Positions 45,603 to 53,490 of a stretch of DNA of 64,000 bases are shown in pieces. The notes under the pieces were generated by a model. The model had not been told where the DNA came from. It did no database searches and was given only the letters and a program-made list of their open reading frames with translations. Source of the DNA: Aquificaceae bacterium (GTDB taxonomy: Bacteria; Aquificota; Aquificia; Aquificales; Aquificaceae); NCBI GenBank assembly GCA_037924335.1, contig JAXSMZ010000003.1, forward strand, positions 1 to 64,000, written 5' to 3'. The position numbers were made by a program, and so were the translations under genes. The number at the start of each line of letters is the position of its first letter. Positions within the stretch are counted from its first letter, which is position 1.

Positions 45603-46696
45603 ACCATGCTCCCTATTTTTTCTAAAACATCCCTTAGAGTGTTAAGGAATGTTTTTATATCCCCTATGGATGTAAGAGGTGGTACTCTTATGAAGAGAAG
45701 GTCTTCAAAACCACACTTCTCCTTTATCCTACCCTTTACCCTGTTTACCATGCAGGGAGATGGATAGCTCAAAAAATAACCCTTCTTTTCCATGAAGGAT
45801 ATTAGCATTTCTGCCTCCATGTCCTTTAAACCATAAGAAAAAAGGCCAGGAGCCTTCCAACCTTCTTTAAAGACTGGAGGAAGAGATAGATTTTCCATAA
45901 TGTATCTGTCGCAAAGGTTGAGGCTTTTCTTCACAGCCTCCTCTCTTTCCATCAAAAGTGCTATAGATTTGGATAGTGAGAATGTCCCAAAGAGATTTTC
46001 CTCTCCAGCTCTTAATCCCCTCTCCTGAACCCCCCCTTCTATCAGAGGCTTGACCCTTACATTTTTTCTCACGTAAAGAACACCTACTCCCTGAGGTCCA
46101 AGCAGGAATGGTCCATCCAAGCTTGCCATATCAAGATCCCTCAAGTCAATCTGGCTGGTGGGATAATAAAGTCCCCACAGATCAAAGTGGCAAAGGGTGT
46201 TCGGATTTGCTCCTTTAACTGCCTTTGTAATTCCATTTACATCCCTCAACGTCGCCGTTTCTCTGCACACTGCCCCCATGGTGACCAACAACGTATCTTC
46301 AGTGACAGCATCTTTTACACGCTCTGGGTCTATGAAACCTGTTTTGTCTGTCCCTAAGTAAACTATCCTTAAGCCTTGTTTTTCTGATAGAGTTTTTAAA
46401 GGGTGTAGGATGGAGGGGTGTTCAAAATCGGTGGTAATTATGCTACCCCTTTTGTTCCACACAGCACCTTTTATAGCAAGGTTGTTGCTTTCCGTAGAGC
46501 TTGATGTAAAAATTATTTCAGAGTTAGCACATTTAAGGAATTCTGCCACAACTGCCCTTGACCTTACAAGCATCTCCTTTGATTTTGTGGATAATGTGTT
46601 TAGTCCAGAAGGGTTTATAAAAAAGTAGGGTAGATTATTGTAAACTTCTCTAAAGACCTCTGGAAAAGGAAAGGAGGAGTATGGTTCATAGATCAT
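45599..46696 (-). CDS. NifS/IscS-like cysteine desulfurase homolog lacking the PLP lysine
   Basis: FTSSSTESNN, EHPS, GPQGVGVLYVR and GG.QERGLR are present, but SGHK reads DGPF. Confidence 0.8.
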   Translation of the reverse strand: MIYEPYSSFPFPEVFREVYNNLPYFFINPSGLNTLSTKSKEMLVRSRAVVAEFLKCANSEIIFTSSSTESNNLAIKGAVWNKRGSIITTDFEHPSILHPLKTLSEKQGLRIVYLGTDKTGFIDPERVKDAVTEDTLLVTMGAVCRETATLRDVNGITKAVKGANPNTLCHFDLWGLYYPTSQIDLRDLDMASLDGPFLLGPQGVGVLYVRKNVRVKPLIEGGVQERGLRAGEENLFGTFSLSKSIALLMEREEAVKKSLNLCDRYIMENLSLPPVFKEGWKAPGLFSYGLKDMEAEMLISFMEKKGYFLSYPSPCMVNRVKGRIKEKCGFEDLLFIRVPPLTSIGDIKTFLNTLRDVLEKIGSMV

Positions 46697-48482
46697 GCAT
46701 AAACTCCTCTAAGGAAAGCCTGACAAGCGTCTCTTTTGTTGGCTTACCTTCCTTATCCCAGCCAAAGGCATTGTAAAACTCCTTTATCATAGACACAAGT
46801 TCCTCTTCTGTAGTTCTGTACCCCATCTCTGTACATTCTTTCTTTATCCTATCGGGCAACGTGTCATCCTTTCTGGAGAAGCCCTCTTTCACATTGAAAA
46901 GTCTTTCGAGTGTATAGATCCTTTCTCCTATCTTGTAAAGCTCGTCCATGGAGATTTCCCAATCCATTAGGGCGTTAACCATATTCAGTATCTCCTCATT
47001 GAGCACGTACCCCACAACCCTTTCCGCACTAAGACAGTAGATGATGCTGTTGACCACACATGTCCAAACAGCAAGGTCCTTACCCATTTTTCCTTTACCC
47101 TCTGGCTTTCCTAAGGGTACTATGTTATTCTCTTCCATTCCAGGCCTTATATCGCAATGGACTGGTCCCCTGTTGGAAACAGCGTAACCAAGAGCCTGAG
47201 TCTTTACAGCCCTTGGAGAATGTCCTGCTATCTCCGTACCTTTGACTGTCAAAAGAAAGGACTCTCCTATACCAAGGAACTTAGAGGCCCTCTGAGAGCC
47301 TTCCGCAAGCACATTACCTATACCTTCCCTAAAAGCTATCTTCTTTAATAGTTTTTTGACAGCCTCAGTGTTGCCAAAATTAAGCTCAAGTCCATCCAAA
47401 CTTTCCCTACTTATGAGCCCCTTCTCATAACACTCCATAATCCATGCTACCACTCCACCGGTCTGTATCTGCCCAAGCCCAAGCTCGTCTGTCAGCCTAT
47501 CCAAGCTTATCAGCTCATCCAAATCCCAGTTTCCAATGGCTGTTCCCATAGAAAAAATACCCTCATACTCCGGACCAACTGTGAAGGTATCTTTACTCAC
47601 AGAGTATTTTCCACAGGGAACTATGCATCCAAAACAGGAAATATCCTTTATCACCTTACTCCTCAACGATTCTCCGCTGATCTTTTCTGCAAAGGGGAAG
47701 GTCTCCCTTTGCCAGTTGTATGAGGGCAGAGCTCCAATGTGCTGAAGATGCATAACCCCTGCAGCCGTTCCAAACATCACAAGATTCTTAACTCCAGGAT
47801 GTTTATGGACTTTTTCCTCAAAGCCTTTTATAAAGTCAATGAGTTTATCAGGATTACGAGGTTTTAATAACCTTTCCCCTCTTACTGTGATAGCCTTTAC
47901 TCTTTTTGAACCGAGGACAGCACCAATACCACCGGTGCCCACAGCTCTTAGGTCTGATATAACGCAGGCATACTTTACAAGATTTTCACCAGCTGGACCG
48001 ATAACGAGAGTTTTCACATCCTCTCCATACTTTTCCTTTAGCTTTTTTTGAGCAATACTCGTGTAGGAACCCTTTAGTTCCTCTGTCTTGTTGAAGTAAA
48101 CCTTATCGTTCTCTATGTGTATATGTGTCCAATCATGGCAAGATCCGGTGAGTATAATACCATCCCACCCGGCAAACTTTATTTCCTGTCCAAACTCACC
48201 CCCGCAGAAGCCTTTGGTAAAGCCCAGCGTCTGGGGAGATTTGGTAAACATAGCAAGTTTTGAAGCCATCGGTAAAAGGGTACCGTTTGCTGGGCCTGTG
48301 TTGATTATCACAGGATTATCCTCTGAAAGAGGGTCAGAACCTCTTTTTGTAAACTTGTAAAGAAGGTATACACCTAAGCCGTTTCCTCCTAAGTACTTCT
48401 CTACAAGCCCTTCAGGTACTTCGTAAACATCGTACTTCCTTTCTGTAAGGTCTATTAGAAGATACCTTCCCCACCAACTCAT
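46686..48482 (-). CDS. Aldehyde:ferredoxin oxidoreductase family (W/Mo-pterin) catalytic subunit
   Basis: YLGG.GLG, KSPQT, GPAGENLV, GAVLGSKRVKAI, CFGCIVPC, GPEYE, ERLFN...G...DDTLP.R. Confidence 0.9.
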   Translation of the reverse strand: MSWWGRYLLIDLTERKYDVYEVPEGLVEKYLGGNGLGVYLLYKFTKRGSDPLSEDNPVIINTGPANGTLLPMASKLAMFTKSPQTLGFTKGFCGGEFGQEIKFAGWDGIILTGSCHDWTHIHIENDKVYFNKTEELKGSYTSIAQKKLKEKYGEDVKTLVIGPAGENLVKYACVISDLRAVGTGGIGAVLGSKRVKAITVRGERLLKPRNPDKLIDFIKGFEEKVHKHPGVKNLVMFGTAAGVMHLQHIGALPSYNWQRETFPFAEKISGESLRSKVIKDISCFGCIVPCGKYSVSKDTFTVGPEYEGIFSMGTAIGNWDLDELISLDRLTDELGLGQIQTGGVVAWIMECYEKGLISRESLDGLELNFGNTEAVKKLLKKIAFREGIGNVLAEGSQRASKFLGIGESFLLTVKGTEIAGHSPRAVKTQALGYAVSNRGPVHCDIRPGMEENNIVPLGKPEGKGKMGKDLAVWTCVVNSIIYCLSAERVVGYVLNEEILNMVNALMDWEISMDELYKIGERIYTLERLFNVKEGFSRKDDTLPDRIKKECTEMGYRTTEEELVSMIKEFYNAFGWDKEGKPTKETLVRLSLEEFMHDL

Positions 48483-48700
48483 GACACAAACTCCAAAGCA
48501 TTTAGAAGACAAAAATCAATACAGTACAATTCCTGACAATCTTCACAATAGCCTAACCTGTATGCGATGGGTTTATTCCCTATGTCCGTTTTTATTTCAA
48601 TGGAGGAGTACCTTGGATTAAAACCTCCCTTTTTATAAAAGGAACAGGCCAACATGCACCTTTTGCATCCTGAACAAAGGTCTAAGTTTAACCTTATCAT
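48479..48700 (-). CDS. 4Fe-4S ferredoxin-like subunit
   Basis: CSGCKRCMLAC and CEDC...CIDFC; coupled to the AOR gene. Confidence 0.85.
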   Translation of the reverse strand: MIRLNLDLCSGCKRCMLACSFYKKGGFNPRYSSIEIKTDIGNKPIAYRLGYCEDCQELYCIDFCLLNALEFVS

Positions 48701-48701
48701 C

Positions 48702-48956
48702 TTAGCCTCCTGCAGTTGGAAGTGTTATCACAAGCTCGTCATCTTCCTTCACCACCTCCGTGTCCTTACAAACCAGTCTACCGTTTAGTATTAGAAGTAT
48801 GCCCTCCCACAACTGGCCTCCGCTGTAAAGGAGTGCATCCATACCCTTTAAGTTTGAAACCCTGTCAAGCACATCCTTTATGTTTTTAACGTTTTCTATT
48901 TCAATGACCTCCTTTCCAGCAACATACCCAAGGTAGCCCAACAGTTTCACCCTCAT
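48702..48956 (-). CDS. MoaD/ThiS-family ubiquitin-like sulfur carrier
   Basis: ILNGR...DDELVITLPTAGG with C-terminal GG. ATG 48956 is preferred because ATG 48965 lies upstream of the predicted sigma54 +1. Confidence 0.85.
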   Translation of the reverse strand: MRVKLLGYLGYVAGKEVIEIENVKNIKDVLDRVSNLKGMDALLYSGGQLWEGILLILNGRLVCKDTEVVKEDDELVITLPTAGG

Positions 48957-48970
48957 CCTAGACATTATTG

Positions 48971-48986
48971 TGCAAAGAATATGCCA
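48971..48986 (-). promoter_or_regulatory. Sigma54 (-24/-12) promoter of the moaD-fdx-aor-nifS-like-nifV-like operon
   Basis: Minus strand reads TGGCAT-ATTCT-TTGCA. Confidence 0.85.
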
Positions 48987-49004
48987 GGTTTTTATTATGT
49001 TTTT

Positions 49005-49042
49005 TGTAAACTTTGTTACAAAAAAATGTAAGAAAAATTACA
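49005..49042. promoter_or_regulatory. Two tandem NifA-type UAS (TGT-N10-ACA)
   Basis: TGTAAACTTTGTTACA (49005-49020) and TGTAAGAAAAATTACA (49027-49042), 22 bp apart. Confidence 0.78.
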
Positions 49043-49059
49043 AAACCTTTTTATTCCAT

Positions 49060-49075
49060 TGGTACAGATGTTGCA
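49060..49075 (+). promoter_or_regulatory. Sigma54 promoter of the nifA-like gene
   Basis: TGGTAC-AGATG-TTGCA, ending 14 nt upstream of ATG 49090. Confidence 0.75.
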
Positions 49076-49089
49076 TATATTATTTTAGG

Positions 49090-50652
49090 ATGGATATGGA
49101 GATTTTAAAGAGGTTTATGAGTGCTGAACTTCAACTACTTTATAACTTATCAAAAAAACTCACCACAATGAATTTAAACCCTGGGCAGTTAATGAAAGAC
49201 TTAGTATATATGCTTGGTGAGTTAGAAGGTGTTAGGAGGGTGGCCCTTTACGTTGCCAATACAGATACATCTAGCGTATCTTTGGTTTCGAGCATTGGTG
49301 TGAATGAGAGCAACGTAACGCTTGATAAGGAAGAAGGTGTGGTAGGCTTTATATTTGGAAAGGGCTATCCTGTTGTTATTAAGAATCTTATGGAAGAGCC
49401 ACTTTTCTTAAACAAGATCAAGAGAGAAAGGCTAAACGATGTAAGCTTCATAGGTGTTCCAATTAGGTACAACGACAAGATCGTAGGCGTTATAACAGTT
49501 GATATAAACAAGGGATTTATCGCAACGGCATACTTAGCAGACCTACTTCTCATGATAGCGAACCTTATAGGGAATTATATATACACTTACATGAAGCTAA
49601 ACGAGAGGGAGAGTGTCCTTAAAGAAGAGATAGCGACGCTTAAGAGAGAGTTTATAAAAAAGTTTAAGGTTGAAGGGTTCATAGGCGTAAGTAGGGCTTA
49701 TCAAAGCATCGTAAAACAGGTTTTGAAGATAGCTGAATTGGACGTTACCGTGATGATAAGGGGGGAATCTGGAACAGGCAAGACTACACTTGCCAAAGCT
49801 ATCCATTACTTTTCTAAAAGGAAAAACCGCCCCTTTGTTGAGATTAACTGTTCAGCGATTCCCACAGAATTACTCGAAGCAGAGCTTTTCGGTTATGAAA
49901 AGGGTGCATTCACCGGTGCTTACACCACAAAGATAGGCAAGCTTGAGGCAGCAAATGGGGGAACTATATTCTTTGATGAGATAGGAGACTTAAGCCTTAC
50001 CATTCAGGCAAAGCTTTTAAGGTTTATGCAGACAAAGGAATTTGAGAGGCTTGGTAGCACAAAAACGCAGAGGTCTGATGTCAGGATCATAGTTGCAACG
50101 AATAAAAACCTTGAAAATATGGTAGCAAAGGGAGCGTTCAGAGAAGACCTATATTATAGGATAGCTATCTACCCCATATATATTCCGCCTTTAAGAGAGA
50201 GGAAGGAGGACATCCCCGTTTTAGTTCAGCATTACCTAACCCAGCTCGGCAGTATGATAGGTAGAAAGTTAAAGGTTGAAGAGAGCACATTGAAGGCGAT
50301 AACATCCTGTGATTTTCCAGGTAATGTAAGGGAACTGATCAACTGTCTGACAAGAGCCGCCATATCATCCAACACGGACCTTATAAAGATGAGCGACCTA
50401 TCGTGCATAGGTACAGGTGTATGTTTTTCTCATATTAAGAAGGAGGATACTGAAAAAGAGAATACGCAGGTGGGAATAAAAGGACAAAAAGATCCCACTG
50501 TTTATGTGCCAAAAGATGAAAGGTCCATGATCATAGAGACTCTCGAGAAGGTTGGTTATGTTCAAGCAAAAGCGGCAAGATTGCTTGGTATGACAGTTAG
50601 ACAGCTCAATTACAGATTGAAGAAGTACAATATACCCATAAAGAAGATTTGA
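49090..50652 (+). CDS. nifA: NifA-type sigma54 activator (GAF-AAA+-HTH)
   Basis: GAF domain, GESGTGKT, ELFGYEKGAFTGA, C-x11-C-x19-C-x5-C linker, QAKAARLLGMT.RQ..YR HTH. Confidence 0.8.
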   Translation: MDMEILKRFMSAELQLLYNLSKKLTTMNLNPGQLMKDLVYMLGELEGVRRVALYVANTDTSSVSLVSSIGVNESNVTLDKEEGVVGFIFGKGYPVVIKNLMEEPLFLNKIKRERLNDVSFIGVPIRYNDKIVGVITVDINKGFIATAYLADLLLMIANLIGNYIYTYMKLNERESVLKEEIATLKREFIKKFKVEGFIGVSRAYQSIVKQVLKIAELDVTVMIRGESGTGKTTLAKAIHYFSKRKNRPFVEINCSAIPTELLEAELFGYEKGAFTGAYTTKIGKLEAANGGTIFFDEIGDLSLTIQAKLLRFMQTKEFERLGSTKTQRSDVRIIVATNKNLENMVAKGAFREDLYYRIAIYPIYIPPLRERKEDIPVLVQHYLTQLGSMIGRKLKVEESTLKAITSCDFPGNVRELINCLTRAAISSNTDLIKMSDLSCIGTGVCFSHIKKEDTEKENTQVGIKGQKDPTVYVPKDERSMIIETLEKVGYVQAKAARLLGMTVRQLNYRLKKYNIPIKKI

Positions 50653-52220: not shown

Positions 52221-52595
52221 ATGGTTGGTATAGATATAATAAAGAATGAGAGAATAAAAAGGGCTATAGAACGATTCGGAGACAAATTCCTGAACCGTGT
52301 GTACACACCAAGAGAGCTATCTTACTGTATGTCCCAAAAATCCTTTTACCAGTGCCTTTCTGCCAGATGGGCTTGTAAGGAGGCAGTACTGAAAGCCTTT
52401 TACCAAAGGTTTGGCATAGTTTTAAAGTTTTCTGATATAGAGGTCGTAGGGAACAGAGGAAAGCCAGCAAAGGTTAGTATTCTCAGAGATGACCTTTCAC
52501 ACCTTCTTGTAAATGTTACAATTATAGTTTCCCTCTCTCATGAGATGGACTACTCTGTTGCCATAGCCCTTATAAATGACCTCCAGGGTGTTTAA
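52221..52595 (+). CDS. acpS: Holo-ACP synthase
   Basis: GIDI, ARWACKEAVLKA, GKP, VSLSHE. Confidence 0.95.
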   Translation: MVGIDIIKNERIKRAIERFGDKFLNRVYTPRELSYCMSQKSFYQCLSARWACKEAVLKAFYQRFGIVLKFSDIEVVGNRGKPAKVSILRDDLSHLLVNVTIIVSLSHEMDYSVAIALINDLQGV

Positions 52596-52733: not shown

Positions 52734-52761
52734 TTGACAAAATTTTTTTATATTATATACT
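52734..52761 (+). promoter_or_regulatory. Sigma70 promoter upstream of the candidate sRNA
   Basis: TTGACA-N16-TATACT. Confidence 0.7.
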
Positions 52762-52766
52762 ATATT

Positions 52767-52850
52767 ATGTAGGTTATAAACGTGGGAGTGACAAACTCCC
52801 TCCCCCTCCCTCCCCTAATTGTTTGCCCTACCGCCCGGTAGGGCTTTTCT
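52767..52850 (+). ncRNA. Candidate C-rich small RNA (alternatively an attenuator leader of sfsA)
   Basis: Promoter upstream, hairpin GGGAGT-gacaa-ACTCCC, unpaired TCCCCCTCCCTCCCC, terminator hairpin; no ORF. Confidence 0.55.
52825..52850 (+). terminator. Rho-independent terminator
   Basis: GCCCTACC-GCCC-GGTAGGGC followed by TTTTCT. Confidence 0.85.
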
Positions 52851-52854
52851 AAAA

Positions 52855-53490
52855 ATGAGATTTCCCAAGCTCATAGAGGCTGAGTTTTTAAGCAGGATAA
52901 ACCGCTTTGTGTGCCTTGTAAAAATAGATAAGAAGACCTTTTACGCGTATGTAAGAAACACGGGTAGATTAACGGAGCTTCTTTGCAGAGGCAAGAGGGT
53001 CTATCTGAGAAAGAAGGAGAGTGGTAAGTATCCTTATGAGGTTTTGCTTGTCTTGCATGAAAACACGCTTGTATGTGTAGATTCTCAGTTAGCCACAAAG
53101 GTATACGTAGAGAGCCTTAGTGGGAAGGTAACCTATGAGCCCAGAATTCTCAACAGAAGGTTAGACTTACTTCTAGACAACACCCTTATAGAAGTAAAAT
53201 CTGTAAACCTTGTGAAGGAAGGCATTGCTCTTTTCCCAGATGCACCTACAGAGAGGGGAAGGAAACACATAGAACTTCTTATGAAAGTTTATCCTGAGTT
53301 TGTACCTAAGGTTATTTTTGTCGTTATGAGGGAAGATGCCAAAGTCTTCTCTCCCAACTGGGATACAGACCCTTCTTTTTCCAAAATGCTGAAAAACTTC
53401 TTTGATGCTGGTCATGAGGTAAGGGCTTACGTGTGCCAGGTTAGTTTAGAAGATATTAAATTAAAGGGAGAAATACCCATCAAACTCTGA
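52855..53490 (+). CDS. sfsA: DNA/RNA nuclease SfsA
   Basis: RINRF, NTGRLTEL, IEVKSVNL, FPDAPTERGRKH. Confidence 0.93.
   Translation: MRFPKLIEAEFLSRINRFVCLVKIDKKTFYAYVRNTGRLTELLCRGKRVYLRKKESGKYPYEVLLVLHENTLVCVDSQLATKVYVESLSGKVTYEPRILNRRLDLLLDNTLIEVKSVNLVKEGIALFPDAPTERGRKHIELLMKVYPEFVPKVIFVVMREDAKVFSPNWDTDPSFSKMLKNFFDAGHEVRAYVCQVSLEDIKLKGEIPIKL

Follow-up and report, generated by a model that had tools for sequence, protein, structure and literature searches.

A conserved C-rich small RNA gene of the Aquificota with a candidate anti-Shine-Dalgarno core

Introduction

In the Aquificaceae genome studied here through a stretch of 64,000 nt (the window), the acpS gene (52221..52595, + strand; TIGR00516) and the sfsA-pncA genes are separated by an intergenic gap of 259 nt, the second largest of the 79 gaps in the window according to our own ORF calls and rightly described by an initial annotation as one of the few large ones. 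The gap carries a promoter-like sequence, a C-rich tract, and a terminator-like hairpin just ahead of sfsA (52855..53490, + strand; TIGR00230 above cut-off), a gene without a Shine-Dalgarno (SD) sequence. The question is whether these elements form an RNA gene of their own and, if so, whether the RNA acts in trans by covering the SD sequences of other messages or in cis on the expression of sfsA-pncA, both of which had been put forward for this locus. The literature searched contains no regulatory small RNA (sRNA) with a known function in Aquificota.

Anatomy of the locus

The element, whose features all lie on the + strand and at the coordinates first assigned to them, begins with a -35 hexamer TTGACA (52734..52739) and, after a 16-nt spacer, a -10 hexamer TATACT (52756..52761), recovered by the promoter scan and together matching the consensus at 11 of 12 positions. 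The predicted start at about 52768 opens a variable, often G-rich 5' segment (52768..52792) that includes a non-conserved GGGAGU arm and is followed by the C-rich core (52793..52815), the predicted seed, with three overlapping CCUCCC words, columns that are invariant or nearly so in A1 and A2, and a C tract at 52801-52815. An A/U-rich single-stranded linker (52816..52824), in which three invariant U precede the stem, is a candidate Hfq site and leads to a 3' hairpin of 8 bp with the loop GCC(C/A) (52825..52844), and to a short U tail, UUUUCUAA (52845..52852), which, judging from the U counts across copies, is probably a leaky intrinsic terminator; TTTTCT runs to 52850, and the ATG of sfsA is found at 52855.

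The initial annotation had described the stretch as free of ORFs and as ending in a terminator with a U-tract. The first statement has to be amended for a 17-codon ORF with a GTG at 52788, a start that is not conserved among copies, and for a TTG at 52819 in frame with sfsA; the second holds for the 8-bp hairpin and the presence of a tail, the tail itself being short (4 U in 8 nt, as in most Aquificaceae). A hidden peptide was considered and rejected, since a GTG or TTG start is present in 29 of 61 copies, the core is nearly without nucleotide variation, and indels shift the frame.

The pattern C3-T-C3-T-C3-T-C3 occurs once in the 1.53 Mb genome. Scans of this single genome recover 9 promoter-like sites (shuffles, 4.1±1.8) and 4 terminator-like sites (shuffles, 2.5±1.7), the window hairpin passing the latter scan; these values are near chance and weak as evidence by themselves. 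The RNA folds with z = -3.2 to -3.9, and the reverse strand folds comparably. What such scans cannot settle is settled by conservation, which shows this to be a genuine RNA gene. Elsewhere in the window, an operon read from the sequence (46686-50652) resembles aldehyde:ferredoxin oxidoreductase, ferredoxin, and a MoaD-like protein, and is divergent from a NifA-like sigma54 activator whose match is below cut-off.

Conservation and spread in the Aquificota

With BLAST at E<1e-8, 22 of the 24 same-family relatives searched have a match, as opposed to 0 of 16 relatives from two other families. When 185,579 species genomes were scanned with an exact pattern, 54 loci were returned, namely 52 in records with Aquificota titles, one in a mis-titled record that corresponds to an Aquificaceae genome, and one chance match, and two exact-pattern scans of viral_contigs found no phage copies. 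A record titled Acidobacteria (L082) carries the element and sfsA at coordinates identical to those of the Aquificaceae genome G059, and its title looks wrong; L048, which matches the core pattern and has no hairpin, promoter, or model hit, was dropped. After removal of 12 duplicates and the chance match, 64 of 77 loci were analysed, and all 64 share one layout of promoter, variable 5' segment, near-invariant core, U-rich linker, 8-bp hairpin, and short tail. The promoter conforms to TTGAC-N16/17-TANNNT in 58 of the 60 loci with enough upstream DNA, the 57 Aquificaceae promoters dividing into 32 with a 16-nt and 25 with a 17-nt spacer, and the 5' segment measures about 14-52 nt in the Aquificaceae values sampled and 0-6 nt in most copies of family f3.

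A covariance model (R1) extended the set to g11, a divergent genus, to a second copy carried by genus g5, and to homologs from two further families, f3 and f4, which probably correspond to the Hydrogenothermaceae and the Desulfurobacteriaceae, f1 being the Aquificaceae according to its record titles. The model was rebuilt from 30 of these extended homologs (R2) and matches 104 of 118 genomes at E≤1e-5. R2 is low in complexity, and for this reason an outgroup control was run: of the 41 genomes searched from another phylum, 3 have weak matches at E≤1e-5, the best scoring 35 bits, and none has a match at E≤1e-9, so that counts were taken at the stricter threshold. At E≤1e-9, R2 matches 103 of the 118 Aquificota genomes in three families (f1, 52/57; f3, 33/35; f4, 17/18; plus the window's genome), with model E-values that are rough and some matches that are training sequences, and matches neither the six genomes of family f2 nor the single genome of f5. 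Two matches are present in most f3 and f4 genomes, a subset of these matches having been inspected. A second f3 subtype, represented by L100, L118, and L120, is found at the 3' end of a gene upstream of homoserine dehydrogenase, has no obvious promoter, and is possibly a 3' UTR-derived relative, and in L123 and L125 one f4 copy lies directly 3' of a tRNA-like gene, ahead of queF.

The 3' hairpin is paired in 456 of 456 alignment cells, with compensatory changes in 5 of 8 pairs and a covariation score equalled by 0 of 500 shuffles; across the three families, in an alignment fitted to the model, 237 of 237 cells are paired and 7 of 8 pairs are compensatory. The covariation that the initial annotation had named as a check is found in this hairpin across the three families, together with conservation of the C-rich tract. 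Conversely, the 5' hairpin that it had drawn between GGGAGT (52784-52789) and ACTCCC (52795-52800) is present at these positions in the window and is not conserved, with 75.7% of cells paired and no compensatory change. A closing helix between the bases preceding the core and the tail was also rejected, being 84.7% paired, no better than shuffles, and devoid of covariation.

Within the core, U separates the C tracts in a way that yields complements of GGAGG and GGGAGGG; the CCCCCUCCCUCCCC portion of the core is found again in f3 and in some f4 copies, the core of f1 tolerates the gain of whole CCCU units, and on average about 50-57% of it is unpaired in this family. The linker has a median of 6 U per 10 nt in f1, the hairpin loop (4-6 nt) is conserved in f1 and of the GCAA type in f3, and the tail has 4 U per 8 nt in 41 of 63 f1 copies and 5-7 U, a normal U tract, in 14 of 20 f3 copies. 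A core that stays invariant next to a stem that varies with compensation fits a seed followed by a terminator. Moreover, the predicted f3 RNA (median 59 nt) extends from the core to the terminator and is therefore little more than these two parts, pointing to core plus terminator as the minimal unit.

Relation to published Aquifex transcripts

Two candidates from an RNA survey of A. aeolicus, n68 (989704-989840, +) and n75 (1168974-1169071, -), are listed in Table 3 of PMC4227106, where n68 is tagged 'Aae-65 [85]', pointing to Willkomm 2005. In the A. aeolicus genome (G020), model matches at 989737-989825 (+) and 1168982-1169071 (-) coincide with these intervals in position and strand, and at E≤0.01 the models match nothing else on that chromosome; the window RNA aligns with 989758-989817 at a BLAST E of 1.7e-9. 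On both sequence and structure, the window RNA is a homolog of n68 and n75. The survey reports dRNA-seq reads for both (476/756 for n68, 158/79 for n75), gives their conservation as 2-4 of 11 genomes, and shows for n75 sense and antisense Northern bands of unexpected size, the authors leaving its polarity open (PMC4227106). The starts predicted here, 989703 and 1169069, are 1 and 2 nt off the published 5' boundaries (989704 and 1169071). This agreement speaks for the promoter and identifies the C-rich strand as the sense strand of n75. The 3' boundaries given in the survey coincide with the next start codon (PMC4227106) and therefore do not prove termination or a discrete RNA.

In the main text of the 2014 survey, n68 and n75 appear as unrelated candidates, with no function assigned and no connection drawn, and its main-text sections describe no paralogy, anti-SD core, or phylum-wide family (PMC4227106). 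Willkomm 2005 or the supplement of the survey may already note the C-rich tract or the likeness of the two RNAs; beyond PMC4227106, the literature searched contains neither 'Aae-65' nor a functional study of n68 or n75. Rfam and ARAGORN detect only two tRNAs in the window, with no other gathering-score Rfam match, and Rfam searches of seven loci give only chance-level matches, none better than E 0.19. The RNA therefore belongs to no known Rfam family, and a match to such a family is what the initial annotation had named as fatal to novelty; novelty is nonetheless reduced by the Aquifex homolog, already a published candidate. What is new, within the literature searched, is the spread over three families, the paralogy of n68 and n75, the core-plus-terminator anatomy, and the target lead discussed below.

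The g5 paralog to which n75 belongs (L088:1183-1272, L089-L093) has an altered core and a weaker -35 element and keeps the g5-type hairpin. The g5 copies also seem to have swapped neighbours, a phosphoesterase following both L021 and L088, and in G020 a DDE transposase gene (L023:412-1377) lies just upstream of the n68 promoter.

Proposed mode of action

The likely reading is that of a trans-acting sRNA that pairs with G-rich SD regions, like RsaE/RoxS or CJnc190, probably with the aid of Hfq. Specifically, an RNA of ~83 nt would be transcribed from its own strong sigma70-type promoter and end at the hairpin with the short U tail; its single-stranded C-rich core, with repeated CCUCC/CCUCCC words, would pair with GGAGG extended by G, and pairing at the SD of several SD-led mRNAs would block 30S binding, with Hfq probably assisting through the U-rich linker and the tail. 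Of the trans-acting repressor first proposed for the locus, the stand-alone C-rich sRNA is well supported and the anti-SD repression in trans is the best reading, with pairing and targets standing as predictions.

In the window's genome, GGAGG precedes 24% of 410 unambiguous starts, the figure for internal ATGs being 1.3%, and a strict -10 box lies 4-7 nt before 11.7% of starts versus 1.1% in the control, an enrichment of both kinds which indicates that SD-led and leaderless genes coexist. The premise of the initial annotation, that the RNA serves a genome of mixed SD-led and leaderless genes, holds here, but the RNA is also found in G068, where only 26 of 1118 starts have the leaderless signature. 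The same signature is seen at 313 of 1527 and 268 of 1526 starts in two Aquificaceae (G000 and G020), all these figures leaning high because the start picker rewards the motif.

Hfq-binding modules combine a U-rich stretch before a hairpin with a 3' U tail; the linker described above is U-rich, but most f1 copies have just 4 U in their tail. Hfq is encoded in 40 of the 41 genomes searched, with two paralogs in 37, three in one, one in two, and none in one incomplete genome; the paralogs of G000 are located at C2:69085-69273 and C5:42820-42996. Family f2 has Hfq in 8 of 8 genomes and the RNA in 0 of 6. Aquifex Hfq binds U-rich RNA with nanomolar affinity, and its structure has been solved in a paper whose text contains neither 'paralog' nor 'second Hfq' (PMC5379935).

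Several known sRNAs resemble the element. RoxS/RsaE of Staphylococcus and Bacillus has several C-rich regions able to pair with G-rich SD sequences and to block translation, acting on ppnKB independently of Hfq (PMC4409812); the present RNA has repeated C-rich words in one continuous tract, about half unpaired on average, in place of separate regions, and matches no Rfam family. CJnc190 of Campylobacter pairs through a C/U-rich stretch with a G-rich ribosome-binding site (PMC8687705), and RepG of Helicobacter, with no homologs found outside that genus, pairs with a G-repeat in a 5' UTR and not with the SD itself (PMC8295292). Both are, like the window RNA, short and directed by a C/U-rich stretch against G-rich leaders or ribosome-binding sites, but their tract is exposed in a hairpin loop (in RepG, the terminator loop), whereas here it lies 5' of the hairpin; moreover, C. 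jejuni, the host of CJnc190, lacks Hfq, whereas Aquificota genomes encode it. The cuckoo family of Alphaproteobacteria (RSs0680/CcsR-like) shares the repeated anti-SD-like C-rich words and is built of 2-4 hairpins, each with a CCUCCUCCC loop (PMC4615179), unlike the single covarying hairpin with loop GCC(C/A) of the window copy, which has no CCUCCUCCC. By analogy, the element may work like RoxS/RsaE, CJnc190, RepG, and cuckoo RNAs, but it differs from them in structure.

KH-domain proteins and Rho are binders of C-rich RNA, and it is conceivable, if rather unlikely, that the unpaired tract is a decoy that titrates a poly(C)-preferring protein of this kind. Near-total sequence invariance and gained CCCU units in f1 would suit a repeated protein site, the f1 loop is conserved as well, and mRNA targets are not clear in genome-wide tests; nevertheless, the U separators make exact anti-GGAGG words, the loop differs in f3 (GCAA type), and known C-rich sRNAs of similar layout pair with ribosome-binding sites, an analogy that favours pairing with mRNA.

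Candidate targets

By free duplex energies, start regions pair with the RNA no better than coding controls (94/1514 versus 93/1447 at ≤-20), and the best perfect start-region matches in the window's genome reach only ~8-10 nt. A cross-genome test, limited to three genomes (G000, G020, and 1.2 of the 1.93 Mb of G068) with 872 and 492 start-consistent orthologs, finds 17 leaders that rank in the top tenth in G000 as well as in G020 versus 7.9 expected, an excess that four control C-rich seeds reproduce with ViennaRNA stacking energies; with G068, 4 shared leaders versus 1.7 expected (p=0.08) are not significant for the seed. With accessibility included, under another set of stacking energies, the cross-genome excess is not significant. 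The short matches would also be compatible with an RNA that acts as a sponge or antisense partner, mainly on G-rich sites other than SDs or on another non-coding RNA, a role for which RepG, with its 5' UTR G-repeat, offers a precedent (PMC8295292); however, the exact 20-nt core pattern and its complement were found only at the locus itself in a genome scan and no partner RNA was identified in the start regions searched, which makes this explanation quite improbable.

For the preferred anti-SD reading, the top-ranked list includes PilM, a PilT-like ATPase, PilC, MglB, and SoxA, and in G000 four of the five pilMNOPQ leaders pair at ≤-10. This pilus idea is post hoc and was followed in a hold-out of 80 metagenome loci at ppsA, 49 of them with pil genes, collapsed to 13 PilM lineages, which share ancestry and are small in number. 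In the eight Aquificaceae-like lineages, the share of leaders pairing at ≤-9 kcal/mol is 8/8 for pilN, 5/8 for pilO, 3/8 for pilM, 2/7 for pilP, and 0/6 for ppsA, against a matched background of 0.23; for pilQ, scored at ≤-12 kcal/mol, it is 4/4 against 0.09. In five f3-like lineages, pilN and pilQ pair in 0 of 4 and 0 of 5, respectively, and pilM in 3 of 5. The pilN site coincides with the coding end of PilM (LRG/LRE) and is confounded by the C-terminal codons of that protein, which can force G runs. At the pilQ site, two adjacent Gly codons are spelled GGA-GGG in 4 of 5 loci and in G000, a spelling used by 2 of 34, 7 of 29, and 2 of 22 in-frame SDs of this kind genome-wide; as it runs against the 16S optimum, it favours an sRNA, within few lineages of shared ancestry. 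Altogether, the pilQ, pilN, and pilO leaders are a suggestive lead in one family only, and pilus assembly genes may be real targets, at clearly less than an even chance. At G000:C6:36239-40173, soxA and the next gene (probably soxX; no Pfam hit) have a G-extended SD in G000 and G020, and the two genes before soxA, probably soxYZ, have a plain GGAGG SD.

Independence from the neighbouring genes

Downstream of the 64 loci lie sfsA in 33, a convergent gene in 19, and another co-directional gene in 8, with 4 loci too short to tell; sfsA is thus the neighbour in 33 of 60 informative loci and other genes are found in 27, with Pfam names that include thymidylate kinase, a DeoR regulator, SpoU methylase, PurD, rhomboid, MnmA, phosphoesterase, a permease, an ABC ATPase, and QueF. 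Upstream genes also differ among loci, acpS not being a conserved partner. The element has its own promoter and terminator and is independent of its neighbours, and this variation is why the attenuator of sfsA-pncA, which the initial annotation had offered as its alternative, fails as a general function. A cis-acting leader is refuted in this general form and very improbable altogether, even if sfsA starts a few nucleotides downstream without an SD, the tail is weak, published read boundaries extend to the next gene, and the GUAGG/CCUAC pairing proposed as antiterminator has a GUGGG/CCCAC counterpart in L003 and L005. Against it stand the 19 convergent and 8 unrelated downstream genes, a forced antiterminator fold that is worse by 4.0 (37 C) and 6.7 (70 C) kcal/mol, a mean z of -0.44 for this pairing over 55 loci (9 below -1.65), and the complete absence of the 5' segment in most f3 copies. 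A more modest connection fits the sRNA gene: sfsA starts 4 nt past a weak tail, without an SD and without room for a promoter of its own, which makes partial read-through likely, and in Aquificaceae sfsA is probably fed in this way.

In L016 and L018, the antisense strand of the entire RNA is covered by the frame of a convergent SpoU methylase, which ends 15 nt short of the core, the core being unchanged; in L017, L019, L020, L022, and similar loci, the convergent gene reaches into the conserved RNA tail with its stop codon, resulting in a built-in antisense overlap. A type I toxin-antitoxin system was rejected for want of a fixed neighbour. Lastly, a G-quadruplex on the opposite strand (four G tracts, 1-nt loops), as DNA or antisense RNA, is hardly credible: f1 has four tracts of at least 3 C, the sole such tight motif in the genome, and antisense reads are published for n75 (PMC4227106), but the number of such tracts drops to three in 8 of 20 f3 copies, the loop base is invariant where a quadruplex would presumably not need it, and in all copies inspected the promoter and the terminator are oriented for the C-rich strand.

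Biological significance

The mechanism class of C-rich anti-SD sRNAs is itself already well known; the present analysis joins two orphan Aquifex transcripts into one family absent from Rfam. Kept in ~87% of the sampled genomes and in three families, the RNA is a substrate for tests of Hfq-riboregulation at 60-90 C and allows the age of Hfq-type riboregulation to be asked. Tentatively, it may represent an ancestral riboregulator of a deep-branching thermophilic phylum, retained by almost every member and with a second copy in several lineages, that would function as a broad SD occluder graded by G-extension; in Aquificaceae, it would damp SD-led messages, such as those for type IV pilus assembly and perhaps SoxAX, leaving the large leaderless set immune, and it could be the first natural client of the two Aquificota Hfq paralogs.
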